Source: a virus
Reading direction: 5' to 3' (one strand)
DNA: 64,000 bases
Virus record (IMG/VR): IMGVR_UViG_3300042539_000668
Location: 4,002-68,001 of that record
Part shown: piece by piece, positions 6,966-62,960 of the stretch
Layout: every line of letters starts with the position of its first letter
How positions within the stretch are numbered: position 1 is the stretch's first letter
Made by a program: the position numbers and the translations under genes
The notes under the pieces: model-generated
The model's database searches: none
What the model was told of the DNA's origin: nothing
The model's input: the letters and a program-made list of their open reading frames with translations, nothing else

Positions 6966-7264
6966 GGTTCAACTACTAGCTTTGGTTCTTCTGCCACCTC
7001 GGCTTCGGGGGCAGAGGCTTCTGCCTCGTCCACCATCTTGTTGATGGCTTCGACCACTTCGGAGAACACCTGTGGGTGGTTCATAGCCATGTGGGCAATG
7101 ACGTTCTTCACCATCTGTTCGCTGTAGTGGCCGGACATCTTCACCCCTCCCTCCACATCACCGCTGTACATCATAAAGAGTTCAAGGGTGTGCTTCTTGC
7201 AGTGCTTGTGCAACTGGTCGGCGAGGAGGGATAGCTTGCTTCTGTTCTGCTTGTCTGTGGGCAT
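6962..7264 (-). CDS. Hypothetical protein
   Basis: 100 aa, in operon. Confidence 0.7.
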   Translation of the reverse strand: MPTDKQNRSKLSLLADQLHKHCKKHTLELFMMYSGDVEGGVKMSGHYSEQMVKNVIAHMAMNHPQVFSEVVEAINKMVDEAEASAPEAEVAEEPKLVVEP

Positions 7265-38805: not shown

Positions 38806-39705
38806 TTAGCTGTGATCTGAAGTGTTGTGGTCGTTACAATCGTGGTCTCGTGGGAATGTGCATCCGGGAGGCTCAATTGAGCCGTTCTCGCTTGTCCAAG
38901 AGCAGTCCCCAAGGGTGTATGTGGCCCTCACAGAAGTGAAGGAGAAGCCGCTCAAGTCATAGACCTGCGGGGATGCAAGGTCTGCCTCCGGCCCTTGGAA
39001 CAGCATCACCCATCCTCCGGGGGTAAGAATCTCCACCATCGCAGTGCGGCCAGCAAACTGGGACACCTGCGGGTAGTCGCTTTGGAAGATGTACTGACCC
39101 GGAGCAGCGAAGAAGGTCATGGTGACCGTCGGGTACAGCAGTCCGGGAAGGCCAAAGCCCAGCGTAGTCCACAAATCTCCCGTGTTGGACGCAAGGGTGT
39201 TCTGCCCGTTGACGATGTTGGTTTGGTTCCACCCGCTCCCGTTCCACTCCACGATGGTGTTCACCACCCATCCCGTACCTCCGGTGTCGGTGACCACGAT
39301 GTACTTGTCACCAATGGTCGGCCCCGCTGCTTCGATGGCCACCCTCTCGCTTACATCTACGGCACGGATAACCGTGTAGTCAACCTGCGGTTCGCAAGGG
39401 TCTGTCGGCGGGAAGTCGCTGCTCTCATCCTGTGGAGGACACCCACACTGGTCGCAATAGCAGTCGGCTTTGGCAAAAACCTTTTGTGCAAAACTCAAAT
39501 CAACACATCCTCCATCGCCCTCGGTAGATGTTGGAACCCTGTCGGCAATTGTCTTTGCCCACAGCATATAAAGCCACAAATTCCTGTTGCTGGCACATTT
39601 TTCTCCACCATACTTTAAGCCATTGATGTACTTGCCCATGTACGACATGGCGCAACAGGCATATGTGATACGCCTTTGACCAATGGCTTCGTCAACATCC
39701 TGCAT
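38806..39705 (-). CDS. Cys-rich structural protein
   Basis: 299 aa; CYCDQCGCPP; GD.YIV...W.....VEWNGSGW segment. Confidence 0.75.
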   Translation of the reverse strand: MQDVDEAIGQRRITYACCAMSYMGKYINGLKYGGEKCASNRNLWLYMLWAKTIADRVPTSTEGDGGCVDLSFAQKVFAKADCYCDQCGCPPQDESSDFPPTDPCEPQVDYTVIRAVDVSERVAIEAAGPTIGDKYIVVTDTGGTGWVVNTIVEWNGSGWNQTNIVNGQNTLASNTGDLWTTLGFGLPGLLYPTVTMTFFAAPGQYIFQSDYPQVSQFAGRTAMVEILTPGGWVMLFQGPEADLASPQVYDLSGFSFTSVRATYTLGDCSWTSENGSIEPPGCTFPRDHDCNDHNTSDHS

Positions 39706-40982
39706 TACAGGTTATTTACGAGGTAAGTATTTTCGATAATCATGCGGGTGCCAGCCATGTTCTTGCGAAGCACGAACACGCGTGTTGCACCAGCAGCAAG
39801 GGAAATCGGAGTGGTGATGGCAAGGCCAGCATCCTCCGCCCACAGGCCCGCAGACAGCGTGATGTCGATGGCCGCAGGGTCTACGTTCTCAATCTGCACC
39901 TCCCACACACCGCTATGGGTGAATGAAGCAGAAGTCCACGAAAGGTCGATGTCCTTGTCCGCCTCGATGGCAAACGCCTGATACTGCAAGTCAAGGATGT
40001 ATGTGCCGGGTGCGCTGTGCGTGACAGCCAGCGGGGTGAACCCAACGATGCGAGGTGTGCGGACGGGGACGGTTCCCATGTCACCACCACTTGCCGTGGC
40101 CACCTGCGTAAACGTAGCAGAGAGGTCGAACGGGTTCGTCCACGTCCCTGCGGTCTTGTAGTACACCTCAAGGGTCACGGAGTCAAATGCCCAGTCCCCG
40201 TTCTTGCCAGTGACGCTCGATGGTACGCCGATGGTGGAGAAAATCTGACTCCCTGCGGCAGGGGTCAGGTTCGCAGTCACCACCCAGCTTATCCCATTCC
40301 AGCTATACCCCGTGATAACCGTAGGGTTGGTGGGGCTGTCGGTGTAGATCTTGAATGTTTGGTTGGGGGCAGGGGCAGCAACAGGGATGCTGTTGACCAC
40401 CTCAATGACACCCGGAAGACCTGCCGCACCCGGTGCGCCAGCAGCACCAGCAGCACCAGTGGCACCATCACGACCCGTAGGGGTCACCTGTGAGTTGGTG
40501 CCGTCAGGCAGAATAGTCGTGCCGGGAGCGACGTTGCCAGTGCCACCATCGTTGGTCACCTTCAACACGCTGCCGCTGGACAAAATCTGCCCAACGGTGT
40601 ACTTCCCTCCATTCTTGATGAATACAGGCTCACCAATTGCAGCCCAGTTAAAAGACCCAGCAGTGCCAGTAATGTTCACTGGGTTGCCGACCGCTGGCTG
40701 AACGAACGCTGCCGTCAGGGCAGAGAAAGGTGCTGCACCAGCAGGGCCGGGTGCGCCCGGTGCGCCGCTCGGACCCGTTGCCCCTGCGGGGAGTCCGAAG
40801 TTCAGCGTAAAGTTGGGCGCTGTACCGCTGACGGTAACCGTTGGGGTACTTCCAGCAGTGAGCGGGGTGACACTTGTTTGGATGTCGGGGGCTGGTCCCG
40901 CCGGGCCTTGGTAGCCTCGTGGGCCACGGGGAATGTTAGGGGTATTGCACCCGCAGGGTGAGGAGGAGCATCCGCAGGACAT
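39705..40982 (-). CDS. Collagen-like fibre protein
   Basis: MSCGCSSSPCGC N-terminus and Gly-X-Y triplet runs. Confidence 0.8.
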   Translation of the reverse strand: MSCGCSSSPCGCNTPNIPRGPRGYQGPAGPAPDIQTSVTPLTAGSTPTVTVSGTAPNFTLNFGLPAGATGPSGAPGAPGPAGAAPFSALTAAFVQPAVGNPVNITGTAGSFNWAAIGEPVFIKNGGKYTVGQILSSGSVLKVTNDGGTGNVAPGTTILPDGTNSQVTPTGRDGATGAAGAAGAPGAAGLPGVIEVVNSIPVAAPAPNQTFKIYTDSPTNPTVITGYSWNGISWVVTANLTPAAGSQIFSTIGVPSSVTGKNGDWAFDSVTLEVYYKTAGTWTNPFDLSATFTQVATASGGDMGTVPVRTPRIVGFTPLAVTHSAPGTYILDLQYQAFAIEADKDIDLSWTSASFTHSGVWEVQIENVDPAAIDITLSAGLWAEDAGLAITTPISLAAGATRVFVLRKNMAGTRMIIENTYLVNNL

Positions 40983-41593: not shown

Positions 41594-44500
41594 CTACTTT
41601 TTACTCCTCTCGTACTTTTCAATCTCCTGCGCCGCTGGCCCCAAGCCTCTTGATTTTATTCTGTCTGACATCTCCTTTGACTTGGCGTTCAAGGAATCTA
41701 TCGTTTTGACAATTTCATCAAGTTTTATTTTCCCTGACTTGTATGTTGAAAACGCCCATTCTGATTGCCCAGCAGCATATCTGTGAGCTTTATTTAGCTC
41801 ATCCTCTACTTGTTGAGCCGCTGCCGAGTTTTTGCCACTTGTCTTTTTTTCTTGCTCTGCCTTTGATATAATGTTTTCGTACTCTTTCAACACTCTATTT
41901 CTGTAAATAGCCTTTGTCAGCAGAGATGACTTGAATTGCTCATCCTTGGTAAGTTCAATCTCTGCGCTTCTTCCAGCAAGTGGCTCCCCTTCACCAAGCA
42001 TCCTTTGAACCTTTTCAATCCGTTGCGCCCTTGGCGTAGCCTCAATAAAAGTATTTGCATACTTCCAGCGCAGATTAACTTCAGGATAGTCATCACTGCG
42101 CTCATCAATGCTGGTGTAGTTCTTCCAAAAGTTCCTGATCGGGTCAATTGATTCAAACGGAAGACCATATTCATCGGTCATTTCATTGGACACAATATGG
42201 TTTAATCCATAGATGCTAGAGAACAAAGCCTTGCTTGTTCCCAAGAATCCCTCCGGCATATACTCACCCTTCTTGGTGGCTCCAGCCATGGAAGCAGCGG
42301 TACTAACCACATCCCTATAGATGGCTGGCTGGGCAATGGCAGCAACAGGACTCATAAACATCCTAGCAAATCCAGCCCCAGCATCATATTTGAACGTAGA
42401 CCACAGGCGAGGGATGGTGGCAAATGATACCTCACCCATTGCAGTTAGGGGAGAGTCGGTAAAGTATTCGTAAAACTCTGCCTTTTTGGGTATTCTTCCA
42501 CGCCCAACTACAGGTTCTGCGTAGAGCTTGTTAACGTCATCAGATATGCGACCAAGCCAAGCAACTGGGATGGTCATGTGTGGAGACAGCCGAACCGATG
42601 TCCAGTCGCTCCACTCGTCATCCTTGCCAAACCTAAAGCGAATGGAGAAGTTTGACCTTCCCTCCATAATTCCTTGGTTCTTGCTCTTGGAGCCACGAGC
42701 ATCAGCAGTAAAGTCAAACACCCTATCGGGGTCCATTTTAATCCTGACCTTTTTACCGAACAGGTCGTAAACATCCTCTGCCTCATCATCGTCATCTGCA
42801 TCCTCCACCTCAAACGTATTTATAAACAAGCCAGCAATTATCATAGTTGACAGCACATTCAATGCAACCCTTCGACCCATTTGCATATTGGCAAACTCCG
42901 GGCTTTGTGCATCGCTTGTTTTGCTTCCCCACTTCCATTCTCCGTTCGCCTTCTTTGCCAAGCCATACTTTGCAGCAGCATAACCAATAATGGGAATGGT
43001 TGACTGAATTTCGCTGACACCTTGGGCCGTGATACGCAAGAAGGGCAGAATGCTAAGGTTGAGAGCAAGTTTGCCAAGCGCAGAAACAAAGCTGTCCCTC
43101 TCACTAATAGCCATTTTTTTGCTGCTCTTGTCCCACACATAACCAAGTACACCATCGGGACGCCACATCATAATCATGTCTGCTGACATCTGATCAACAG
43201 CGTTGGTCATTTCTGCATCCCTCTTTGCCCTCATTATCTCGCTCGTCCTTCGACGCAAGTAATCCCGTGGGATGGAGACGCCGTCCGATTCCATTTGGTC
43301 GATTTCCTCTTGGGCTTCCTTGGCTGCTTCGGTTCTATCCTTCATGGCCACCCCAGCCATCTCATCAATCTTGTTGAACAGCTTCTTGCTAATGAACGGA
43401 GTCCACGCTTCAACAATTGATGGGTCGGCAGTGCCATCCTTCACCATGCCGCGCATCTCATTCTTCAGCTTGATGTAGTCTTGCATTCCCTCCATGTGAG
43501 CGGCAAGGCTGTGGCGAAGAACGGGGTCAATGAATTTCAGAAGAGCAGTAATACGAGTGGCCTGAGCCGATGCAGATGCAAGCAGCATCAAAGCACCCTT
43601 GGTCTTTCCAAGAGCAGTAGGGTCGTTCTTTACCCTGTTCCATTGCTTGAAGAAACCATTCAAAATGTGAACCTCAAACGGGTCTGCGTAGGTGCTTGCG
43701 TTCTCAACGGTCCAACTTGTACCCATTGAGTCGTATGCGCTTTGATTGAACATACCCTTGGAGAACGCAGTTGGCATCTCCTTGAGCATCCTCATCATCC
43801 CATAGATGTTTGCGCCAATGGCCGTGCTTGGGTTTTTGGCGCTCATGGCAATGCTGTTCATTACAGCATTGGGTATACCAGTCAGGACACTACCCACAAA
43901 GGCGTTCTGCAACGTACTGATACCCGAAAGCACGGCGTTGTAGAACCACGACTGGAAGATTATCATCCACTTTACTGCGCTCTTAGGCTCACGGGACACC
44001 TGCTCCAAGTACTGGTTCAGTCGCTTGGCGTACTTCTCACCCATCTCCTTCTGTGCAGGGATGGCGCTCTTGTCATCTATGCGATAGCGAATGCCAGCGA
44101 AGTACTCCATTGCCTTGGCCATGTGTTCAATGGCCTTGCGGTCTTGCGTGGTCAGGTAGTTACCACCAGTAATTGCAGCGAACACAGAGTCAAAGTCGGG
44201 GTCGTTCAGTTTACCAGCCCCGGCAAGTTGCACCAGCTTTGCAACAAGGCTTGCTTTCTTCTTGGGAGACAACTTGTTCTTCGCAAGCAGCTTGTTGATC
44301 GCCTTCAGGTCATTTACCTTCTTCTCAAGAGCAGCAGCTTGTTTCTTGTATGTGTCGCGCTCGGCAGCAATCTTGTCCTTCTGCTTCTTTAGCTTGCCAA
44401 TAAGCCTGTTTTTGTTATTGATTTCTTTGGTAAGGTCAGCAACTTGTTGAGCATAGCTTGCTGCATTTGCAGCGGCAGAAGAGTATAGCTTGTTTACCCC

Positions 44501-47500
44501 TGCAAGAAGTCCATCAAGACGCTTGATTTCATCCTCAAGCTCGGTGATTATCTCATCGTATATCTTGGGGTCTCCAATCAGTTTGCTTGCGCTTACGGGG
44601 GTTGGTGCATCAAGGGGAGTGGATTCTCCAGCGGCAACCTTTGCAGCGTGTATGTCCTCCATCGCGTCATTGACATCCTCCGCAAGGTCAACCACCTCCT
44701 TGATTTCCTTGTTCTCCTCCTTGTCCAAGAACTCCTCAACCTCCTCCTTTGACTGCTGAATGTCATCGGCAATGGTCTTGCCCTTTTCCGAACCCTCTTG
44801 GGACTCCAGCTTGCCCTTGAACTCAAGGTCGATTTTTTGAGCAATGACCAACTGGGCAAACTTCCCATACTGGCTGTAGACTTCATTCAGCGCAGCGTTC
44901 ATCTGACCCATCTGCCTTGCCTTGATGGCCATGTCCATGACCATCTTGGCTCGGAGGTTGGCAATCTCCTTGCGGGCTTTCGCTGACAGCTTCTTGCTTC
45001 CAGCATACATATCCAAAGCAGCGTGAAGTTCGCCATAGGCAACAACACGAGAAACACCATTGGTCACCGACTGGACATCAGCATAGACTGCCTTGGCCCA
45101 CTCTACAGGCGGCAGGTCTGCGTACTTGAAGTAAAGCTCGGCCACATAGTTCCTTCCTTGGTCAATGGCCAAACGGTACTCTTGGTCAGTCTTGTATGCT
45201 TCTTCGTATCCAAAGATGGCATCGCGCTCTTCTGCACGGGCTGGGTCACCTTGGATTTTCTCGAGACGACGACGGGCTACAGTGATGATATTGCGGGTAT
45301 CCTCTGGCGTTGTAGGAGGAAGTTCATCCTCCTTCCGCTCTACTATTTCTCTGCGCCTTGGGTCAAACCTTCCATAGTTGCCCGTTGCGGACTTGATTTG
45401 GGTGGGGCCGAATACGATATAAGAGTCTTGCGGAACTCCGGAGTATTCAACAGCATTCAAATACACTATACCGCCATATCCCTTAGAAGTTATTTCATCG
45501 GCCAATTCGGCCATTGTGGCGGCATCGCTGTCCCAAGAAAGCTCTTCTTTTATCTTCTTGACACTTCCCCAGTTTCCAACGTCCGGCAGGCGCAACAACT
45601 TTCCAGTAGAGATGTAATACGCCCCTATGTTGGCTCCGCTTGCGAAAGCCATTCCGGGATAGGCCCGATCCGCCGCTGCCTTCAATTCGGACAACGCGGA
45701 TAGCTCATCTTTAGTGGGCTTGTATTCATACTCTTCAAGAACGGCGCCGATGCTTTCTCCGCTCTTGATTCTGTCAAGAATTGCAGACTGCTCTTCGTCT
45801 GTCGGCTGCCTCCGCATATCCCTTAAGGTATTTGCATATTCAACAGCCTTTGAACGCGCTTCATAGTATTTATTCTCAAGCCTTATAAACTCCTGCTTAT
45901 CGGATTCTGACATCCTTTCGCCAGTAGTCATCTCAAGGCGCGACTTGGCGGCGTCTATATCCCCAAAATGAAACCCAATGTGCGCTCCTCTTGTTTTTTT
46001 GAATGCCCCAATATCAGCGTGAGTGGCATGGTAAACCACGACAGGTCTGCCTTGTTTGTCTTTTGGCCCCTTGTAAAACCTCCAAAAGTTCCGCACACCC
46101 TCTACCGTAGGATGGATGGGTCGCCCTTCGGAGTTGAACACCGTGCGCTCCTTGCCGTCCACCGTCACGGTCTTGGTGTCGCCGACAGGGGTCTTTGGCT
46201 CTTCAATACCATTGAAGGCTTCATCCTCCTTCCGCTCCATGACCTCGCGGCGTGGCTTTGTTTCCTGCTTTATAAGTTTTCCGCTACTTGATACAATTTC
46301 ATCAAATTTCTCTTTGTTAACCCTATTGTCCTCATACCAAGGTTGAGTTCTGTTAGAACCATTTTCATTCGTGCTAACCTTAAAACTTGATGGAGCGACT
46401 GAGTTCTTGCCCTTTTTCTTCACTTCATTGATCATTTTTGTGTATTGATCAAGAGTGAACTTGTATTGATTTCCCTTTGAGTCAGAATATATTTTATAGC
46501 GATTTCCGTTCTTGTCAATCGCATACTCTGTACCATAAGCATATGAGCCATACTCACCCTCCTTGGCCGAAACATCGGCAAAGGGATTTTTCTGACCCTT
46601 CACCTCATTGAGAAGGGCTTCAAGTGTTTTGTGACTTGCTTCCTGTCCACTATGTGCAACCCAACTTTCCCAATGCCAACGACCGGGAGTTGCTTTAGTT
46701 CCTTCAGGTCGAAGCCCCTCCTTAATTAGCTTATCAAATATTGCCGGGAGTTTTTCTTTCAGCACCGACTCTATTGGCTCATACAACAACAGCCCTCTTA
46801 CTCCAGTTGTCAAATCAGCAAGTCCACTTCCCGGTAATTTGCCACTTACGGCAGTAAGATTGCCATCGCTATCGTCAACAATTTCCTGAACCTTGAGTTG
46901 ATCTTCTTTAGAAGAACCTAGCCACGTGTAGATTTTTTCTTTTTTAGGCTTGCCATTTTTCGTTAATACAGGATTGCCTTCTTTGTCCAGCACGGGCTTT
47001 TCAGAATAATATCCATGCCTTCCAATTCCATCATACAAATTATAGTCACCAAGCCTCCCATCATTAAATGTGTTGTCAATCTGTACCCTGTCAAAAACAG
47101 CTACATCGGGATGGCCTATAACAAGCAACGTGAATGACATTACCTTGTTGTCAATGCCAACGCCTTGACTCATCTTTAGGAACTCTCGGCGAATTTCTTT
47201 GCCTGTCTTCTTTGGGTCACTAAACAAATCGTGAAGTGCCTGCATCCTTGTCTTTCCGTCAGGACCAATTTGAGCCATTTTCGCCATAAACGAACCACCA
47301 AAAGCATTTGCGTTGTGAGTGGTTCCTGCACCCGGCTGGCCAGTACCCTTCTTGATTGTATCAGACACTATTTCATTCCAAGCCTCGGCATCAGCCTTAG
47401 TAAAGGTTCCGTTGACAACCTTGTCAACAAATGGACCAAGCGGTGACACAAGGTCTACAAATGCAGATTCCTGTACATATGGAGAAACGCCCCTTGACAA

Positions 47501-49861
47501 GAATGACCACATCATCAACTTTGCCGTGGTTGACGGAGGAACCTTTCCAGAAGTGTACAACTTTCTAAACTCCTCCCCCATTTCAAATCCATGCTCGGCA
47601 TCAGAAACCTGACCGGGCGAGAGAGTCTTTAACTGATTGTATACCCCATCGCCATTTATCATTTCGATAAACCTAGCGGGGGCCATTGGAACGTCATTTG
47701 TTCCATATGCAATCGCTTGCATACGAAGCCAATTAGTAACACTTTCAGTAGCGTTTTTGGACAATGACAAGACCTTGTCCAAAGCAGAAAGCTGCTTAAC
47801 GGCGTTTTTGTTAGTGGTATTTTGACCAATAACAGCTTTTACGCCAACTTCTTTTTCCTTTGAAATATCTACGGTCTGCCTAAGCCTTTTAACAACGCCA
47901 TGTTTGTTGACATCGTCAAAATACTTTATACGGCGCTCTAGATATTTCCTTTGCTTGTCTGTTGCCCCGAAGGCTTTTTGCCAGTTTTTGGCATTGAACT
48001 CAAATCCTTCTGTTTTGAGCGCAGAGATGTAGGGGGCAAGAACATTATCGACGGCCCCTCGGAATAGATCGGGTCGTCCGGTTCCGCCATCCTCGCGCCC
48101 ATCCGCTCCGCTATCTCCCTGAAGATTTGTGCCCGTGACTTGCTTCCAGTATCCATCTGCGTTGTCTAGTTGACTGTTGGTGCCAAAGATAATAATATCC
48201 GTGAGACCCGATGCTTGCTGAACTTTTTGTACTTGAGCAAGGAAGTCTTGATATTGATCTTCCTCTGACTTTTTTGACTTATCATCAGGGAAAAAGAAGA
48301 ACTTGATGCCGCCGCCGTTAGCCGCCTCACTAGCACCATAGAAGCCCTCCTTCGATGCCAAAGATAAAGCATTCCGAACTTCCTTCCTGCTAATCGTCTT
48401 CCCGTCGGGCCTTCTTATGACCACCGACGGTATGCCAACATTGTCTTTAGCTGATGGCTGATAGGTAACAACCGCCTCTTGCAAAAATGCGAAGCCTAGA
48501 AGATTTGCAAACTTTCTAGCATCATCAAATGATACTTGAGAACCATCTTCAGACAGCGGAGTAATAACAAATGTGTTTTCTATTTCTCCATTCCAAAGAC
48601 CCTGTATGCTGATTTTTGACTTTGTAGATTCCGCTTTAAATCCTGAGATGTTTTCAAGGAAATTAGACGCTGCCGAAGAATTAAGAATCAAATCAACTCT
48701 CTGATGCAGCCTGTCAATGTAAAGCTGACTATTGCCACCTTTTGGATAAGATACAATTGCGCCCTTTTTATCTTGCTCAAGAACAAAACTTTTCCCCGGC
48801 TTGGACGAAACAACAACTGATACCTTTCCAGATTCCGACTTAACTATTTCTTCCTTTGATATTTTGTCCTTTTCCTTCCTTTCCACGGCCTCTCTCATTC
48901 CAGTGGCCTCGGATTCGGCCTTAACCTCCCTAGCAGCGGCTTCTGCAAGCCCTTCCTTCATCTTCCCGCCTACTGCAATTGATTGCCCAAGAGCGTTGAA
49001 GAATGCCCGGACATCAGACTCTTTCTCAACGGGGAATACAAGGCCACCTGTCAGCTTGTTGATGAACTGCTTGATGGCCTCTGCCAGCTTACTCAGTGCG
49101 CTAAGTTCCTTAGCCCCAACCTTTCCATCTGCAAAACGCTTCTCAATACGCGCAGTCATTTCGGCCAAGAACTCTTCAGGCCTTATCTCCTTATTCTCAT
49201 ACTGCTTAACAAACTCATCAAGATACGCAAGGTCTTTTACAGAAGTAGACGGCCTTATAGCTGCAATAAACTTCTTGAACAGCTTTGGGTCTCCGGCAAA
49301 ATACTCCATCAAAGCGACGTGGGCAAGTTCATGCGCCACAGTGCTTAATGACTTGGTGTCCAAGTTGATGTAAATGTCAGCGCCCATGTACTTGCCGTTG
49401 GCATCGTACCGAGGGACAGCAACTCCACCACCAGTATATTCTTTGCCCGAAACATCCTTTGTAATGCGCTGATAGTCAGCTTTACTCTCTGCAACGAAAA
49501 TCCTGTTTCCCTTGCCCGTGTTGGCATCGTATCCTAAATTGTTGTTACTGAGCCATCGAATGCCATTTATAATCCTGCCAATTATCTGAGGCTTGGATAA
49601 TTTATTAGCATTAACTCCATCATGGCGCTCCATGAGATCCTGCATGGCATCAACATCCGAAGCGTCTACAGCACCCTTGGGGACAGCCTGCTCCACCTTC
49701 GCCTTCCCTTCTTCAGTAGCCAAGGTTTCCTTGGCAACTGACGTAAGTTCGGGGATGCGCTCCAGCAGCCCGTCATACATCAGGGCGCGGAACTCGTTAT
49801 GGTTGTAGTCCTTGCCGTTGAAGGTAAAGATGCGGTCCTTGATGTCGCAGGATAGTGCCAT
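41594..49861 (-). CDS. Giant polyvalent, probably ejected, virion protein (2755 aa)
   Basis: HELAH...EEFLAE zincin; GLWNGEIENTF...QEAVV; GIDNKVMSF...AVFDR; VVYHAT...GFHFG...YIVF.P.QIKSA.GN.GRFD; coiled coil; long helical C-terminal region. Confidence 0.8.
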   Translation of the reverse strand: MALSCDIKDRIFTFNGKDYNHNEFRALMYDGLLERIPELTSVAKETLATEEGKAKVEQAVPKGAVDASDVDAMQDLMERHDGVNANKLSKPQIIGRIINGIRWLSNNNLGYDANTGKGNRIFVAESKADYQRITKDVSGKEYTGGGVAVPRYDANGKYMGADIYINLDTKSLSTVAHELAHVALMEYFAGDPKLFKKFIAAIRPSTSVKDLAYLDEFVKQYENKEIRPEEFLAEMTARIEKRFADGKVGAKELSALSKLAEAIKQFINKLTGGLVFPVEKESDVRAFFNALGQSIAVGGKMKEGLAEAAAREVKAESEATGMREAVERKEKDKISKEEIVKSESGKVSVVVSSKPGKSFVLEQDKKGAIVSYPKGGNSQLYIDRLHQRVDLILNSSAASNFLENISGFKAESTKSKISIQGLWNGEIENTFVITPLSEDGSQVSFDDARKFANLLGFAFLQEAVVTYQPSAKDNVGIPSVVIRRPDGKTISRKEVRNALSLASKEGFYGASEAANGGGIKFFFFPDDKSKKSEEDQYQDFLAQVQKVQQASGLTDIIIFGTNSQLDNADGYWKQVTGTNLQGDSGADGREDGGTGRPDLFRGAVDNVLAPYISALKTEGFEFNAKNWQKAFGATDKQRKYLERRIKYFDDVNKHGVVKRLRQTVDISKEKEVGVKAVIGQNTTNKNAVKQLSALDKVLSLSKNATESVTNWLRMQAIAYGTNDVPMAPARFIEMINGDGVYNQLKTLSPGQVSDAEHGFEMGEEFRKLYTSGKVPPSTTAKLMMWSFLSRGVSPYVQESAFVDLVSPLGPFVDKVVNGTFTKADAEAWNEIVSDTIKKGTGQPGAGTTHNANAFGGSFMAKMAQIGPDGKTRMQALHDLFSDPKKTGKEIRREFLKMSQGVGIDNKVMSFTLLVIGHPDVAVFDRVQIDNTFNDGRLGDYNLYDGIGRHGYYSEKPVLDKEGNPVLTKNGKPKKEKIYTWLGSSKEDQLKVQEIVDDSDGNLTAVSGKLPGSGLADLTTGVRGLLLYEPIESVLKEKLPAIFDKLIKEGLRPEGTKATPGRWHWESWVAHSGQEASHKTLEALLNEVKGQKNPFADVSAKEGEYGSYAYGTEYAIDKNGNRYKIYSDSKGNQYKFTLDQYTKMINEVKKKGKNSVAPSSFKVSTNENGSNRTQPWYEDNRVNKEKFDEIVSSSGKLIKQETKPRREVMERKEDEAFNGIEEPKTPVGDTKTVTVDGKERTVFNSEGRPIHPTVEGVRNFWRFYKGPKDKQGRPVVVYHATHADIGAFKKTRGAHIGFHFGDIDAAKSRLEMTTGERMSESDKQEFIRLENKYYEARSKAVEYANTLRDMRRQPTDEEQSAILDRIKSGESIGAVLEEYEYKPTKDELSALSELKAAADRAYPGMAFASGANIGAYYISTGKLLRLPDVGNWGSVKKIKEELSWDSDAATMAELADEITSKGYGGIVYLNAVEYSGVPQDSYIVFGPTQIKSATGNYGRFDPRRREIVERKEDELPPTTPEDTRNIITVARRRLEKIQGDPARAEERDAIFGYEEAYKTDQEYRLAIDQGRNYVAELYFKYADLPPVEWAKAVYADVQSVTNGVSRVVAYGELHAALDMYAGSKKLSAKARKEIANLRAKMVMDMAIKARQMGQMNAALNEVYSQYGKFAQLVIAQKIDLEFKGKLESQEGSEKGKTIADDIQQSKEEVEEFLDKEENKEIKEVVDLAEDVNDAMEDIHAAKVAAGESTPLDAPTPVSASKLIGDPKIYDEIITELEDEIKRLDGLLAGVNKLYSSAAANAASYAQQVADLTKEINNKNRLIGKLKKQKDKIAAERDTYKKQAAALEKKVNDLKAINKLLAKNKLSPKKKASLVAKLVQLAGAGKLNDPDFDSVFAAITGGNYLTTQDRKAIEHMAKAMEYFAGIRYRIDDKSAIPAQKEMGEKYAKRLNQYLEQVSREPKSAVKWMIIFQSWFYNAVLSGISTLQNAFVGSVLTGIPNAVMNSIAMSAKNPSTAIGANIYGMMRMLKEMPTAFSKGMFNQSAYDSMGTSWTVENASTYADPFEVHILNGFFKQWNRVKNDPTALGKTKGALMLLASASAQATRITALLKFIDPVLRHSLAAHMEGMQDYIKLKNEMRGMVKDGTADPSIVEAWTPFISKKLFNKIDEMAGVAMKDRTEAAKEAQEEIDQMESDGVSIPRDYLRRRTSEIMRAKRDAEMTNAVDQMSADMIMMWRPDGVLGYVWDKSSKKMAISERDSFVSALGKLALNLSILPFLRITAQGVSEIQSTIPIIGYAAAKYGLAKKANGEWKWGSKTSDAQSPEFANMQMGRRVALNVLSTMIIAGLFINTFEVEDADDDDEAEDVYDLFGKKVRIKMDPDRVFDFTADARGSKSKNQGIMEGRSNFSIRFRFGKDDEWSDWTSVRLSPHMTIPVAWLGRISDDVNKLYAEPVVGRGRIPKKAEFYEYFTDSPLTAMGEVSFATIPRLWSTFKYDAGAGFARMFMSPVAAIAQPAIYRDVVSTAASMAGATKKGEYMPEGFLGTSKALFSSIYGLNHIVSNEMTDEYGLPFESIDPIRNFWKNYTSIDERSDDYPEVNLRWKYANTFIEATPRAQRIEKVQRMLGEGEPLAGRSAEIELTKDEQFKSSLLTKAIYRNRVLKEYENIISKAEQEKKTSGKNSAAAQQVEDELNKAHRYAAGQSEWAFSTYKSGKIKLDEIVKTIDSLNAKSKEMSDRIKSRGLGPAAQEIEKYERSKK

Positions 49862-50367
49862 TACTTGAATTTCTCTTGTTGCCAGTAGTAAAGTGCAAAG
49901 CTATTCACGTCAGCAGCGATGGTCTGAAGTTCGTTGAGCATATCGCTGTACTCAATCACGCTCTCATTCTGACCAAGACGCAGCGGGGTGAGGAAATCGA
50001 ACACACACAGGTCAAGGTTGAACATCTCCTTGGATGTCTCCTCGTATGCTTCGTACAGGGCGTACTCAAGGTCATATGCTTGCTCGACCACGTCGATAAG
50101 GCCACGATATTCCTTGTCAGGCTGTTCGATGGCAGGGAGTTCAAAGAAGACATTCCAGTCTGTGATGTACTTCTCAATCTTCCGAGCGTGGTCGTGTTCG
50201 TTCTCCGCTTCTTTCTTGAAGAACTTGGCGATTGCTTCGTACCCCTGCCCCTGACACCAGTTGGCCACAGCAGTGTAGAAGTACATGGCATCGTACTCAT
50301 CCTTGAGGCGCTCAAGGAGTTTAGATACGACCAGCTTATCGAGTGTTTTGGGGGCTTTTACGGGCAT
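49861..50367 (-). CDS. ftnA: Ferritin (non-heme FtnA-like)
   Basis: E..A.YFY.A.A.WC...GY...A.FF...A.NE..HA.K...Y..D; E and Q.E ferroxidase-region residues. Confidence 0.85.
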   Translation of the reverse strand: MPVKAPKTLDKLVVSKLLERLKDEYDAMYFYTAVANWCQGQGYEAIAKFFKKEAENEHDHARKIEKYITDWNVFFELPAIEQPDKEYRGLIDVVEQAYDLEYALYEAYEETSKEMFNLDLCVFDFLTPLRLGQNESVIEYSDMLNELQTIAADVNSFALYYWQQEKFK

Positions 50368-53300
50368 CGTACTTTAAGTTTACCTGCTTTCTCTAAGTCA
50401 TTTACAGCTTTGTCAAAGTTAGCATCTACTTCGGCAAGTCGAGCATCCTCCGCAAGCATTTTCTTCTTTGCACTCTCGCCGCTCTTTTTGGTTTTTTCGT
50501 GACGGCTAGATTCTTTGTCCTCTGCCTTGGACAGGTCTTTCATCTTCTTCAAGGTCTCTGCCTTGGGGGCAGCAATGGCTTCAGTAGTGGCAGCAGGGGC
50601 GGTGGGCTTGGTCATTGCAAGCTGCTCTCTCGCGGCTTGTTTGATTTCGGCCCCTGATGCGACCACTATATAAGACTCTTTGGTTGGCGTTTTTATCTTG
50701 GTTTCCTTCCCGACAGGTATTCCAAGAATAGACTTTCTTGTGGATATTTCAACACCACCACTTTTTATGGACTTGGCCTTAGAGCGAAGCGCCTCTGGAA
50801 TTTCATCAAGTGACTGATATGTCAGCGTTACAATCTGATTATCGTCAAGTGATTCAATTTCTTGAGGAAGTGCTGGGGCAGGAGCAGTCTCTGTAGTTGG
50901 AGCAGGGGCAGCAGGGGTGGGTTGGGTGGTTGTAGGTCTTCCTGAAACAATTGCCGAAACAGTTTTATCTCCAACTTGGTCAAGCAAAAATGTACGATGA
51001 TGACCATCTTTCAAATGATATGTTCCATCCGGAAGATAGGTAGCCTTTATGGGATTTAGTTTATTGAACTCTCGAAGTTTTTGCTGTGCTTCTTTATTGG
51101 CCTTAAAAGCATCAACCATTTCTCTCATTGTAGCATTATCGGGAATTTGCATTCCTGCTACATTTATCAATACGTCTCTTACCTGTGATTCAGTAACGCC
51201 CTGCGTCCCGATTGACCCATTCGGTCGGCGCACATTTGAAATGTCAAAATCCTCAATTTCTTCAACAGGGGCTACTTCTGCTTGCGCCCCGCCCTCTTGG
51301 GTAGCTTGAGTCCCTTCGACGCTCGGTCGAACTCCTCCACCCCCTTCTTCCCTAACGCCTTCTGTCCTGCTGGGCTGTGCGCCCACTTCCGCTGTTGTTG
51401 GCTCTTGTACGGCATCTGTTGTTGGTGTTACTGGTTTCTTTTCAGTTGAGATACGCGCAAGCTCTTGGTCAATAGCTTTGATTCTATCGCCCACCAGCGC
51501 AGGGTCTTTTTTCTTTAGCTGTGCCTTCTCCGTGAGCAGGTCAAATGCCTTTCTAGTTGCAGCAACCGATAAATCATCAGGGATTTGATTTGACACCTCC
51601 TTGGCCACACGAAGGTCTTCCATGGCCTTGTCGTAATCGGAGCGGCTTATTTTCCCCTTTTCAAGTGCAGCAGATGCCGTAGCTTCAAACTCATCCTGCA
51701 AGCTACCATCTCCAACAATTTTCTTGAATACTTCAAATTGCCTGTCATTCAATCTTTGACGAGCGCCAATAGAAGTGACAGCGGTCATTGATCCGCTGAT
51801 TATGTTACCAACTATACCGCCAACCAAAAAGTTGTCTACTAAACCATCCCCAAACTCCCTAAATGATTCTGCATTATTAAATAACAAGTCGGCCCTATCC
51901 CCGAATTCGCTACGCTTATAATTTTCATAAATTGACTTTACCGCCTCTTCTTGAGTATAGTCAATCATTTCTTCGGTTCCCTCAATAAGATAGCCTTGCG
52001 TCAGCTTGGATGTCATGTTCGCAACATAACTCTTGGTCTCTGCGTCAATAATTCTGCGTATTTGACCAGCAGTCATATTTGGCGCAAACTTTCTAGCAGC
52101 CTTAAAGAATATGTCATTGACAATTGGCATTTTTCCGCCAAGTGCCCTGAGTCCCGCTGTAGAAAGACCTGCGCTAACAGCAGATACACCAATCCTAATC
52201 GCCTCCTTCTCTGCTTCGGGAACTTGGTCCCAAAGCTCTCCCTGCATCTCCTGACCCATTTGGTCATAGGAGCCAGCGAAGAAGGTTGCCATCATTGCAG
52301 GAGACCCACCTACCGCAGAAGCAGCCAATGCTGGAACCATGTCTGCGGTTGCATACAATCCCTGATAAAGAAGATTCTTTTGCCTGTCAGCCTCAATAAA
52401 TTCAGGAGTTACAAATTGCTTTATTTTAGAAATTTCTACAGGAGCAATTCGCAATTTGCTTATTGCTGTTTTTTTATCTTCTTCATATTTTTTTATTTGT
52501 TCTTCTGAAATAAGGCCGAAATCGGCCATAACTTTAATAGGGTCTGGAATAATTTTGTCTTGAAATTCAGTAATGCCAGCCATAGCACTACCCATTGCTT
52601 GAGTTATAGAATATGTCAGACCAGCAACTGTATTGCCCTTTTGCGACTTAATTTCCTTATCACGCCTTGCGGTCATAAGCTCATCCATTTGAGCCTTTTC
52701 CGCAAAATCATTCATAATATCTGCGTTTATCTTTAGCTTTTCATATTCTTTTTTAACTTTCTCATTGGCTTGAGCTATAGTATTCTTGTATGATTGCTCA
52801 TCTAGCAAACCTTGAGACCTAGCAAAATTGGCTTGATTTATTTTGTCGGTATATCCTTTTTCAATTGAAGTATTGTACGCATCAAAGAATTGCCTCATTC
52901 TATTGAATTGCTGTACAGATGCCTCATTTGCTTTCTTTCGCTCCTCTACTCCTTTTGCGTCAAGATTGGCGTAATTCTTCTCGTAATAGTTATACTCTGC
53001 TCTTTCCTTTTCGGGGAGCAGCTTTGGCTGTGCGAGACTTGGAAGCTGTTGCGTTGTTTCTGTTCCGAGTGGCTTTGGTGCGATTGCCGCTCTCAAGTCC
53101 ATCGGCTCTTGAGATGGAGCAACCGATGGAGAAGGTGTATCCAAAGGCTGTGATAGACGCGCCGAACGAAGACCGGGGGAGTATGCCTCCAGTTCGCTCA
53201 TTCCCTCCCCAGCAGGTGGCGGCTGCTGGGGCTGGGCAAAAGGGACTCGCGCCTTTGTAGGGTCTCCCACTTCGGGGATTTCCGGGGTCTCTTGGATTGA

Positions 53301-53558
53301 CTCGCGGAACTCCTCCATTACATCTCCCTGCTGCCTACGCGCAGCGCGTTCCTGATCATCCCTCTGTGCAGCGGTTGGTTGCTGACTACTGCTAGAAGGA
53401 AGTGGAATCCCTATGTTCTCTGCTGTAATGTTATACTTCTTGAAGTCATCAATCGTTGCCAAACCTTGCTTGATTGCAAACTGAGCAATGCGTTTTTTAG
53501 TCATGTCCTTTGGGACACCTGCTAAAACTTTTCCATTTGGAAGTATTACGTCGGGCAT
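50358..53558 (-). CDS. Large ejection/internal virion protein with a ParB-like domain
   Basis: 1066 aa; Gly/Ala hydrophobic helices; NPI......Y.L.DGHHR near the C-terminus. Confidence 0.7.
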   Translation of the reverse strand: MPDVILPNGKVLAGVPKDMTKKRIAQFAIKQGLATIDDFKKYNITAENIGIPLPSSSSQQPTAAQRDDQERAARRQQGDVMEEFRESIQETPEIPEVGDPTKARVPFAQPQQPPPAGEGMSELEAYSPGLRSARLSQPLDTPSPSVAPSQEPMDLRAAIAPKPLGTETTQQLPSLAQPKLLPEKERAEYNYYEKNYANLDAKGVEERKKANEASVQQFNRMRQFFDAYNTSIEKGYTDKINQANFARSQGLLDEQSYKNTIAQANEKVKKEYEKLKINADIMNDFAEKAQMDELMTARRDKEIKSQKGNTVAGLTYSITQAMGSAMAGITEFQDKIIPDPIKVMADFGLISEEQIKKYEEDKKTAISKLRIAPVEISKIKQFVTPEFIEADRQKNLLYQGLYATADMVPALAASAVGGSPAMMATFFAGSYDQMGQEMQGELWDQVPEAEKEAIRIGVSAVSAGLSTAGLRALGGKMPIVNDIFFKAARKFAPNMTAGQIRRIIDAETKSYVANMTSKLTQGYLIEGTEEMIDYTQEEAVKSIYENYKRSEFGDRADLLFNNAESFREFGDGLVDNFLVGGIVGNIISGSMTAVTSIGARQRLNDRQFEVFKKIVGDGSLQDEFEATASAALEKGKISRSDYDKAMEDLRVAKEVSNQIPDDLSVAATRKAFDLLTEKAQLKKKDPALVGDRIKAIDQELARISTEKKPVTPTTDAVQEPTTAEVGAQPSRTEGVREEGGGGVRPSVEGTQATQEGGAQAEVAPVEEIEDFDISNVRRPNGSIGTQGVTESQVRDVLINVAGMQIPDNATMREMVDAFKANKEAQQKLREFNKLNPIKATYLPDGTYHLKDGHHRTFLLDQVGDKTVSAIVSGRPTTTQPTPAAPAPTTETAPAPALPQEIESLDDNQIVTLTYQSLDEIPEALRSKAKSIKSGGVEISTRKSILGIPVGKETKIKTPTKESYIVVASGAEIKQAAREQLAMTKPTAPAATTEAIAAPKAETLKKMKDLSKAEDKESSRHEKTKKSGESAKKKMLAEDARLAEVDANFDKAVNDLEKAGKLKVRCP

Positions 53559-61572: not shown

Positions 61573-62322
61573 TTATGGGAAGTGGCCAAGACGATAGGTG
61601 TACGCAGTGTTGTCGTAGCGACCCTTCTTGTCCAAACGCTTGTATCGGCCAATGGCAGTCCACCAAGAACCCGTGGGTGTTTTCAATTCCCCCTCCTTTC
61701 GTGCAATGACACGGGCAAGGAACTGCGGGTCTTCGCGCTCCATGGCCAAGGCAGCGCGGTGGATGACAAAGTCTGTGATGGCCTCACGGCACCAGTGCGG
61801 GATGCGGAAGTCCTCTCCAAAGCACTCCATACCCAGTCCCGTGTAGGCGATGTGTATCTTCTCGTACTTCTTGCACGAGGGGGCCATATAGAGCTTACCG
61901 CCCCTTAAACCAGCGAAGTAGATGTTTGGCGGGGGAGCCTCGCTCCACTTGAGCGACCACTGCATCTCGTCCATGTTCCTCCCCTTGTTGTTGGCGATGT
62001 AGCCATCCCCACCTTGGTGCCACATATTGGGCTTGATGAACAGAATCGTCGATGTCTGAATGTTGCACTCGCTCCCGCTGAACAGATAAATCCCGTCCGT
62101 CTCCGTCAAGTCCTGCGGGAGTTCCAGCACCAAGTTGTTCGGTATCTCCGATTGCCATGTTTTCTTGTAGAAGTTCGTGTAGGAGTTCATCTCCGTCAGG
62201 CCACGCTGACAGGCGGAGACATAGAAGGGCTTGCCAAGACGGCCAAACTCCGGGTCGCGCAACTCTTGGGCAGCGGCGGTGATGATCTCACCCATGTCAA
62301 ATGTCGCGTTCCCAAGTGGCAT
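61573..62322 (-). CDS. Tail ring/tubular protein
   Basis: 249 aa; LP.D, I.Y.G...IP...EAI..F; directly upstream of the stabiliser. Confidence 0.6.
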   Translation of the reverse strand: MPLGNATFDMGEIITAAAQELRDPEFGRLGKPFYVSACQRGLTEMNSYTNFYKKTWQSEIPNNLVLELPQDLTETDGIYLFSGSECNIQTSTILFIKPNMWHQGGDGYIANNKGRNMDEMQWSLKWSEAPPPNIYFAGLRGGKLYMAPSCKKYEKIHIAYTGLGMECFGEDFRIPHWCREAITDFVIHRAALAMEREDPQFLARVIARKEGELKTPTGSWWTAIGRYKRLDKKGRYDNTAYTYRLGHFP

Positions 62323-62960
62323 TAGTTGTCAATTTGAATTGGATTGTTCATCGACATCTGACGCTCGGTGCGAACAATCTGATTAGGCTCAAAGTCCCTA
62401 CCATTTGCCCCATAGTAAGGAGAATGCTTACCATGGTGCCTCAAAGATAGTTTGGCGCAGGCAAGTGCGGCCTCGGATTTGGTGGCATGATATCCGCCAT
62501 GGATGTAGTTTCCATTTGCCCTAACCGCAACCTTCCATTTTCCGAGCTTGTTCGAGTATGTTACACCCTTAAAGCCGGATGTATTGTTCTTTGGGGCCAT
62601 CCTATTCCACTGGTTTGTGGAGTTATTAGACAGCCTCAAATTTTCAATCCTGTTGTCTGTTGGATTCATGTTGATGTGGTCGATAAATGCACCATCATCA
62701 ATATAGCCATGTGCCATTATCCAAACAATCCTGTGCTCAAGATAGGGCCAGCCATCAATGCTGATATATCGAGAGGACACCTGCCCCCTTTGGCCAACAG
62801 AAGCACGTCCTGCCCTTTTTCCAGCACGGACAGTATTGAACCGCTTAGCGTCTTTGTATCCTTCCGGAGCCTCTTTCCATGTAAGGTGACCGGTATCTGG
62901 ATTGTATGACAGACGACTGTGCAAGTACTCGTAAGATGGATACTGCCTGTGCTTGCTCAT
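62322..62960 (-). mobile_element. Free-standing HNH-AP2 homing endonuclease
   Basis: L.Y.P.TG...W, HR..W...G...IDHIN....DNRIENLR...N..N, NTSGFKGV......KW AP2-like domain. Confidence 0.9.

Follow-up and report, generated by a model that had tools for sequence, protein, structure and literature searches.

How a giant phage protein that carries several enzymes on a single chain is divided into functional units is a question raised by one gene of an uncultured virus (IMG/VR record IMGVR_UViG_3300042539_000668). The stretch analysed, hereafter the window, is 64,000 nucleotides (nt) long and comprises bases 4002–68,001 of a 68,001-bp source record rated approximately 99% complete. The gene in question is an open reading frame (ORF) with an ATG start on the minus strand, and encodes a polyvalent protein of 2755 amino acids (aa) followed by a stop codon. 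Polyvalent proteins are thought to be a main phage route for delivering anti-host and anti-defence enzymes together with DNA. Whether and where they are cut has been a matter of proposal only since 2017, and a defined tag makes that proposal directly testable. An earlier note on this DNA had read the protein as a series of enzyme modules delimited by a repeated linker, at which its own peptidase may cut. Here, the linker is traced through related loci and proteins, and the resulting evidence is weighed for and against cleavage.

A repeated peptide tag in the polyvalent protein

The tag has the core RE..ERKE (points stand for any residue) and is present in three copies, all of which were found exactly at the coordinates given in the earlier note (Table 1). 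The chance expectation from composition is 0.0003 copies, and at least one copy arose in only 6 of 20,000 shuffles of the protein. When the entire 68,001-bp record is translated in six frames, the relaxed pattern E..ER[KR]E is confined to the polyvalent ORF. A chance repeat as the origin of the tag is ruled out by the shuffles together with this genome-wide uniqueness.

Synonymous sites vary between copies (four Arg codons, AGC versus TCC for Ser, TTG versus CTA for Leu), and conservation therefore acts at the peptide level. A recombination signal in the DNA was considered as the conserved entity and was demoted to a side effect, as the codons differ freely between copies. Tags 2 and 3 encode ERKEDE with the same 18 nt (GAGCGGAAGGAGGATGAA), within which the string AAGGAGG is a perfect Shine–Dalgarno-like sequence. 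Across three loci, the RKE[DE] codons carry a Shine–Dalgarno-like AAGGAG(G) in 9 of 11 ERKE copies.

Module boundaries and recombination breakpoints at the tags

The three tags separate an N-terminal module A, a middle block B (B1 and B2), a module C and a C-terminal carrier D. That they delimit modules, as had been suggested, is borne out by homology blocks, DNA mosaic breakpoints and a drop in GC content, all of which fall at the tags. BLASTP against 93 homologous proteins of 1645–4536 aa gave 227 interior block endpoints, of which 98 are no more than 20 aa from a tag, compared with 5% if endpoints were uniform, although the endpoints are not independent of each other. DNA identity to the related locus L007 is 93.5% over aa 1–335, 97% over aa 1204–1260 and 88% over aa 1484–1519, while identity to locus L003 is 95% over aa 1–56 and 92.7% from aa 1523 to the end. 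The homology block shared with protein P0002 begins at aa 1509. Three DNA mosaic breakpoints are located 0–12 residues from the three tags, and others are found at aa 56–61, 1260 and 1484.

Block B (approximately aa 343–1194) is missing from the closest relatives and is 51–57% identical to a stretch in the otherwise unrelated polyvalent proteins P0008–P0018; a sub-boundary lies inside it near aa 650. The middle block had been described as richer in AT than the C-terminal body, and it is: GC content is 0.441 in B1 and 0.430 in B2, compared with 0.487 in D, 0.494 in A, 0.504 in C and 0.515 in the genome. The GC step coincides with tag 2. GC content at third codon positions shows the same drop, with 0.41 (B1) and 0.40 (B2) against 0.55 (A), 0.54 (C) and 0.55 (D). 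The low values of block B therefore suggest that it was imported fairly recently, with tags 1 and 2 as its limits. When module content was compared between homologues, the architecture proved variable, with relatives carrying LPD22, LPD23, LPD37, LPD38, InPase, SLT and DUF7178 in varying orders. Taken together, the sequence comparisons support the exchange of modules at the tags.

Tag dialects and a family-wide junction motif

The consensus of the ERKE-type tag is [KP][RK]RRE[AVI][VM]ERKE[DE], with a length of 8–11 residues. All six full-length relatives with the HELAH zincin variant carry it, in one to four copies, at other positions and next to other modules. This set comprises P0003, P0004, P0005, L005, L007 and the window protein itself (P0001); L005 is identical to L002, and P0007 is its fragment. 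The tag is also present in the HELAH fragment P0105 and in the partial locus L008. In the big ORF of L007, two ERKE tags (aa 323 and 372; nt ~7020–7210) lie 49 aa apart with no domain between them, resembling an emptied slot.

Relatives with other zincin variants have other tags, namely I[TV]LKESIE in three copies (L003), EES.LRES[KR]E in two (L004/P0002), [IT]LKSS[KD] in three (P0006), SKAQEI in two (L009, L010 and P0020) and SEMR.DE in three (P0056). Shuffled P0001 yields 0.3 such repeat pairs on average, and in five related loci (L003, L004, L005, L007 and L009/L010) each lineage's tag is confined to the big ORF. The carrier genes of L003 and L004 are 93% and 88% identical to that of the window, yet both loci have a different tag and a different zincin. 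The latter shares only 38–39% amino acid identity with the window's, despite 95% nucleotide identity of the preceding head to L003. The same module may also follow different tags: the AFNGIEEPKTP module is preceded by RREVMERKEDE here, and by SEMRSDE, QEMRADE and VSMKDE in P0056, P0050 and P0057, respectively. In 7 of 13 proteins that carry module B and have a zincin outside the present clade, the motif in front of this module is of the [IM]R[FY]S[KP] type.

A pattern shared by the wider family is the tetrapeptide SK[SA]Q, which was counted in proteins of at least 1200 aa, comprising 153 with the present zincin clade and 82 related polyvalent proteins without it. It occurs 192 times in the former, compared with 14.6 in shuffles, and 55 of these proteins have at least two copies; in the latter it occurs 3 times, compared with 8.0 expected, and none has two or more. 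Drawn from related sequences, these family-wide counts describe a strong pattern and not a number of independent events. The motif is also polar with respect to the HExxH of the zincin, with 165 copies downstream and 5 upstream in the 55 proteins, where 58.7 upstream copies would be expected. In 24 of the 55, the first SK[SA]Q is located 135–217 aa after HExxH, often at about 140 aa; tag 1 of the window protein lies 146 aa after H177. Homology-block endpoints fall within 15 aa of SK[SA]Q in 2215 of 18,016 cases, a 3.6-fold excess over the 614 expected. The context of the motif is [IVLFP]-[KVT]-S-K-[SA]-Q-[LVIK], with which the ERKE tag aligns position by position: a hydrophobic residue, then V/M, E for S, R for K, K for S and E for Q. 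What is new here is that the ERKE tag represents a single lineage's form of a junction motif found across the family.

The N-terminal zincin-like module

Module A (aa 1 to approximately 320) is common to P0002–P0007, P0019, P0020, P0050, P0056 and P0057. It opens with a short head (aa 1–56) that is 71–78% identical in amino acid sequence in otherwise divergent proteins. The domain behind the head had been called a zincin peptidase because of its HELAH motif, and zincin hallmarks are indeed present: none of the 157 aligned sequences departs from H177, E178, H181 or the downstream E230. In an AlphaFold2 (AF2) model of aa 1–345, the predicted local distance difference test (pLDDT) score is 70.6 overall and approximately 80–94 in the core. 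Strands at aa 119–124, 146–152 and 158–166 precede the HExxH helix (aa 173–190), and E230 is placed in a second helix (aa 228–244). The region of tag 1 is modelled with low confidence, with pLDDT below 50 at aa 293–325 and 341–345 and block means of 40–50 between them. On these sequence features, module A is a zincin-like metallopeptidase domain with predicted peptidase activity.

A search over 1.84 billion representatives recovered at least 150 proteins at E ≤ 0.001, most of which are 2000–4900 aa long with the matching core internal. Compared with the predicted viral structures of BFVD, the zincin model has six hits with E ≤ 0.001, among them a ‘structural protein’ from elemoC, a phage of Flavobacterium, and ‘Internal protein D’ from the Bordetella phage BB8. 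Weak structural similarity (E 0.0027) is also seen to a MuF-C-domain protein from phage phi191. The zincin core also matches 68 records of Flavobacterium ‘elemo’ podophages (24.7% identity, E 2e-4), whose 3694-aa ‘structural protein’ (L092, NC_062743.1, 49920–61004) has HEIFH at aa 1543. Neither SK[SA]Q, nor ERKE, nor any clear repeated tag was found in this 3694-aa protein. The cultured elemo podophages, whose zincin belongs to the present clade, are a possible laboratory model, though one without SK[SA]Q or ERKE tags.

The middle block, the ADP-ribosyltransferase module and the carrier

Module B1 is shared with P0008–P0018 and others. Its former label, ‘SAM-lyase-like’, is without support, as no Pfam family was matched and a profile of aa 331–650 searched against PDB sequences was uninformative, returning only ribosomal protein L21e (E 0.013).

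The glycosylase-like part that had been suspected in the middle block does exist. In an AF2 model of B2 (pLDDT 89.3, predicted template modelling score 0.86), aa 733–1077 superpose on the Ogg2 of Thermotoga maritima (3n0u_A) with a VIA Z score of 15.9 and a root-mean-square deviation of 3.0 Å over 207 of 209 residues. VIA ranks 2–22 are all members of the helix-hairpin-helix (HhH)-GPD class or the related queuine-salvage fold. Foldseek comparisons with Ogg2 chains gave probabilities of 0.91–1.0 and template modelling (TM) scores by target of 0.54–0.72, but E-values of only about 0.09–0.43. A profile of 27 B2 homologues had its best PDB matches, both weak, in Methanocaldococcus jannaschii Ogg (MjOgg) chains 3fhf/3knt (E 0.065 and 0.21). 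K906 and D924, 18 residues apart, align with the Lys and Asp of these chains, and neither varies in any of the 27 homologues. The aligned residues of MjOgg are presumably its catalytic K129 and D147. No Pfam family is matched by the Ogg2-like module itself, the Ogg-HhH family PF22175 is matched weakly by 3 of the 27 homologues (best E 0.2), and a protein-atlas search with B2 gave only a weak lead to DUF7178. With the Ogg2 glycosylases Tm1821 (3n0u) and MjOgg (3knt/3fhf), B2 shares the fold, the helix-hairpin-helix and the Lys–Asp pair 18 residues apart. It differs in having only 11–14% identity to them and in lying within a 550-aa module that also has a beta-rich insert (aa 947–1010) and an extra C-terminal beta domain. 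As modelled, B2 is an Ogg2-like HhH-GPD DNA glycosylase fold with predicted activity; an injected Ogg2-like glycosylase would be an unexplored kind of phage effector.

Module C, which had been described as similar to an ADP-ribosyltransferase (ART), is placed in the ART-PolyVal family (PF18760) above the Pfam threshold, with an E-value of 8.8e-9 and 36.7 bits against a cut-off of 31.2. The match (aa 1407–1499, nt 45365–45643) covers profile positions 48–140 in two stretches, which implies an insert. Blocks corresponding to this module (aa 1206–1506) are shared with many polyvalent proteins. In eight proteins without the present zincin clade (P0040, P0047, P0059, P0062, P0090, P0093, P0051 and P0013), a different motif is repeated after ART domains, reading ...QIKSAxGNxGxFDPxNPDIR[FY]S[RK], or FSKK. 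In the window protein, RRREIVERKE occupies the same place behind the ART domain, after SATGNYGRFDP.

The carrier, module D, is 89% identical to that of P0002, 61% to those of P0003–7 and 33% to those of P0019–21. It has a coiled coil at about aa 1750–1866 (nt 44264–44614), and hydropathy indicates hydrophobic segments at aa 2257–2277 (nt 43031–43093) and aa 2329–2350 (nt 42812–42877), followed by an acidic run. No Pfam family is matched by the 1240-aa carrier, PDB sequences gave coiled-coil matches only, and viral contigs scanned with the single sequence of module D gave no matches. An identification as LPD38, suggested by a protein-atlas lead (score 0.93), was rejected at an hhalign probability of 0.6%.

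Are the tags cleavage sites?

A tag that recurs at each joint, shifts jointly from lineage to lineage, is associated with a single peptidase clade and begins right behind the peptidase, never ahead of it, is what would be expected of polyprotein cleavage sites. The tags are accordingly treated here as putative cleavage sites for the protein's own zincin, a reading that stands at about an even chance of being correct. What the sequences show is the motif, its place at module and recombination boundaries, its lineage versions, its statistical association with the zincin clade and polarity to it, and the domain identities; cleavage, the enzyme that cuts, its timing, packaging in the virion and the targets of the effectors are inferred. 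Under this reading, an uncultured podovirus-like phage would make a polyvalent protein of the cargo (ejection) type, in which the 1240-aa carrier and the 56-aa head would frame exchangeable enzyme modules. These modules would be the zincin-like peptidase, B1 fused to the Ogg2-like DNA glycosylase, and the ADP-ribosyltransferase. The zincin would recognise and cut the tags, the first site lying directly behind the peptidase as in viral polyproteins. Products of approximately 322, 870, 290 and 1240 aa would be released either within the capsid or once the protein has been ejected into the host. Within this proposal, tags would change together with the peptidase lineage because all joints must fit one peptidase, and breakpoints would pile up at the joints because only there would swaps leave working products. 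Self-processing by the metallopeptidase (MPTase) of polyvalent proteins has already been proposed in general (Iyer, Burroughs, Anand, de Souza and Aravind, 2017, J Bacteriol, PMC5512222); exact candidate sites are added here.

A broader extension is more tentative and falls somewhat short of even confidence. The tags may constitute a junction code, in which each zincin clade reads its own tag (here RRExxERKE, as a version of the family-wide hydrophobic-x-S-K-[SA]-Q). Beyond the first site behind the peptidase, a tag would stand in front of each cargo module. Peptidase and tags would co-evolve, and the tags would act as slots for effector cassettes passed between phages and even between neighbouring cargo genes. 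If this is true, sequence alone would allow the limits of effectors and the products of processing to be predicted for thousands of uncultured phages. The tag would be a rule for splitting the giants into functional units, and it points to enzyme modules being swapped in at the joints, as with the Ogg2-like glycosylase block and its foreign base composition.

Besides the relatedness of the sequences counted, several observations weigh against self-cleavage. Only 77 of the 153 zincin-clade proteins have any SK[SA]Q, and no repeated tag was found at the threshold used in P0019, P0095, P0098, P0050 or P0057. Some module boundaries are untagged, at about aa 650, 1260–1300 and 1405–1484, and block endpoints without a tag also cluster at about aa 1275–1325. 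The co-variation of tag and zincin in the close family could also be explained by inheritance of the N-terminal 1500 aa as one block. In the AF2 model, tag 1 is a low-confidence helix and is not in the active site. The resemblance of the zincin model to solved structures is weak, with a best Foldseek E-value of 0.058 in a list that includes neurolysin, lethal factor, PPEP-1 and YbeY; a VIA Z score of 5.7 over 147 aa to the N-domain of anthrax lethal factor does not rise above noise. Pfam gave no match for the zincin domain, either in this protein or in 18 relatives, and position 124, which is His in 74 of 96 relatives, is Ala here. No cleavage product or neo-terminus was seen, and among candidates for a split gene or a stand-alone module A or D, the short matches were contig fragments or ambiguous.

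Of the alternatives, it is unlikely, though it deserves serious weight, that the tags remain uncut. They would then be conserved inter-domain spacers (for a non-protease reader, independent folding, threading through the tail, or packaging) and, at the same time, safe crossover points. The ERKE version is charged, helix-prone and predicted as a low-confidence helix, breakpoints coincide with the tags, and tags 2 and 3 share 18 identical nt. The closely spaced pair in L007, with its appearance of an emptied slot, would also suit a spacer. So would the precedent of N4 vRNAP, ArdC and TraC1, which carry zincin-like domains yet are transferred uncleaved (PMC5512222) and thereby also count against self-cleavage. 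A passive spacer, however, needs no identical eight-residue sequence at every joint that changes in step between lineages. The SK[SA]Q and LKESIE versions are not charged helices, DNA identity is not kept since synonymous sites differ, and the polarity to the zincin would be left unexplained.

It is improbable that the tags are cut by another protease, either of phage capsid maturation or of the host, while the zincin serves as an effector against host proteins or peptidoglycan. The three closest tag versions can all be read as hydrophobic-x-Glu (VME, IVE, AVE, LKE, LRE), which is the shape of maturation sites of the T4-gp21 and phiKZ-gp175 type. The SK[SA]Q version, on the other hand, lacks the Glu, and it is tied and polar to the zincin clade (165 downstream versus 5 upstream). 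Moreover, no capsid-maturation (prohead) protease was recognised by Pfam or PHROGs among the 70 ORFs tested, and the tag is absent from all other ORFs, including the capsid, scaffold-position and portal genes. A role for the zincin as an effector has some precedent, as some MPTases are allowed as effectors by Iyer et al. (PMC5512222), and peptidoglycan degradation has been proposed for the metallopeptidase of phage phi24B (bioRxiv 10.64898/2026.04.10.717836). Internal translation starts, by which modules would also be made separately, can be given hardly any credence. The Shine–Dalgarno-like AAGGAGG in 9 of 11 ERKE copies would fit such starts, but 10 of the 11 copies have no in-frame ATG, GTG or TTG at a usable distance, and the other tag versions, judged by eye, lack a Shine–Dalgarno-like string.

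Comparison with known polyvalent and cargo proteins

The zincin-like, HhH-GPD and ART-PolyVal domains on a 2755-aa chain, together with variable architecture among relatives, place the protein in the polyvalent class. With the proteins described by Iyer et al. (2017), it shares its nature as a giant multi-enzyme phage protein, a zincin-like HExxH, ART-PolyVal, rapid module turnover and predicted delivery with DNA. A cleavage site, a junction motif or the word ‘linker’ was not found in the accessible text of that paper (PMC5512222), whereas a lineage-specific joint tag is defined here. More generally, no published junction or cleavage motif for polyvalent proteins was found, including in the accessible text of PMC5512222, PMC7824862, PMC10172136 and the phi24B preprint, with subscription journals and supplements outside the scope.

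The gene position and the resemblance to internal or structural phage proteins indicate that the protein is probably carried in the virion and injected. An example among packaged and injected internal head proteins is the ADP-ribosyltransferase Alt, which phage T4 carries in its capsid and, once the protein has been processed proteolytically, injects along with its DNA. Alt contains one enzyme only and undergoes a single cut, made by the prohead protease at a capsid-targeting sequence, whereas the window protein has several enzymes on one chain with a built-in peptidase. In crAss001, we take the muzzle to be gp44, so that gp45–gp50 would directly follow the muzzle gene. These cargo proteins were detected in virions by mass spectrometry (MS), and are kept in capsid and tail, to be ejected (Bayfield et al., 2023, PMC10172136). 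As here, crassvirus cargo consists of large proteins encoded among virion genes near the muzzle gene; unlike here, the crAss001 proteins showed no detectable homology to the window protein.

A further example is gp47 of phi24B, a 2811-aa podophage polyvalent protein with LPD5, LPD1, LPD38 and a MuF-C metallopeptidase, which MS finds at high abundance in virions and for which a role as an ejection protein is proposed (bioRxiv 10.64898/2026.04.10.717836). No processing of gp47 is reported in the accessible text of the same study (bioRxiv 10.64898/2026.04.10.717836). Both are giant polyvalent proteins of podoviruses with a metallopeptidase, but no sequence match to gp47 was found in the phage collection, and the carrier here is not LPD38. 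Against GenBank phages, a tblastn search with the whole protein returned two weak partial matches.

Genomic neighbourhood

The polyvalent gene is housed in a run of virion genes on the minus strand, the order of which is the same in five related loci. On one side of it is a muzzle-like tail gene, and on the other are genes for the tail fibre and for lysis (Table 1). The portal gene of the virion-gene block matches the P22-type portal model. The match of the muzzle-like protein to the crAss_MUZ family is confined to the N-terminal 364 of its 1593 aa, and membership of the Crassvirales is thus not established by it. Three genes (274, 792 and 1066 aa) between the muzzle-like and ferritin-like genes gave no family matches. 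Downstream of the polyvalent gene are a 186-aa gene, a collagen-like tail-fibre gene, two genes of unknown function, an amidase gene and a metallophosphoesterase gene.

Table 1. Coordinates of the polyvalent gene, its modules and tags, and two neighbouring genes in the window.
Feature	Residues (aa)	Window position (nt)	Strand	Remarks
Whole gene, polyvalent cargo-type protein	2755 aa	41594..49861	-	homologues n = 93
Conserved head (MALSC...FRALMYDGLLE)	1–56	49694..49861	-	95% nt identity to L003
Zincin-like metallopeptidase domain	~60–300	48962..49684	-	HELAH aa 177–181 (nt 49319–49333); candidate third ligand E230
Junction tag 1, MREAVERKEKD	322–332	48866..48898	-	core RE..ERKE 48872–48895
Module B1	333–650	47912..48865	-	shared with P0008–P0018 and others; GC 0.441
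Module B2	651–1203	46253..47911	-	modelled Ogg2-like HhH-GPD fold aa 733–1077 (nt 46631–47665), K906 and D924
Junction tag 2, RREVMERKEDE	1204–1214	46220..46252	-	core RE..ERKE 46226–46249
Module C	1215–1502	45356..46219	-	small conserved lead-in domain aa 1215–1267, then ART-PolyVal with insert
Junction tag 3, RREIVERKEDE	1503–1513	45323..45355	-	core RE..ERKE 45329–45352
Module D, carrier	1514–2755 (~1240 aa)	41597..45322	-	block homology
Ferritin-like gene, directly upstream of polyvalent gene	168 aa	49861..50367	-	PF00210, E 7e-20
Muzzle-like tail protein	1593 aa	56788..61569	-	PF25731 crAss_MUZ, E 2.3e-16, 59.6 bits (cut-off 27)

The final base of the ferritin-like gene is the first base of the polyvalent ATG. 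Its product retains 89–100% amino acid identity across five related loci, whereas the polyvalent gene varies. The conserved DNA continues from the ferritin-like gene through the first 56 polyvalent codons, with 95% nucleotide identity to L003. This conserved block may reflect a coupled pair or a packaging signal.

The 1066-aa neighbour gene (window 50358–53558, minus strand) is itself mosaic between relatives. Its aa 694–776 and 897–982 show homology to part of the L009 polyvalent ORF (L009 nt 1944–2423), which suggests that modules pass between these neighbouring cargo-type genes. Inserted among virion genes are two genes for HNH_3 endonucleases (window 62322–62960, minus strand; L011 586–1161, minus strand), one of which has an AP2-like domain; both are probably homing endonucleases. 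The collagen-repeat tail-fibre-like gene (window 39705–40982, minus strand) has a GC content of about 0.60, compared with the genome mean of 0.515, and just upstream of it, at the 3′-end of the polyvalent gene, GC content falls to 0.43.

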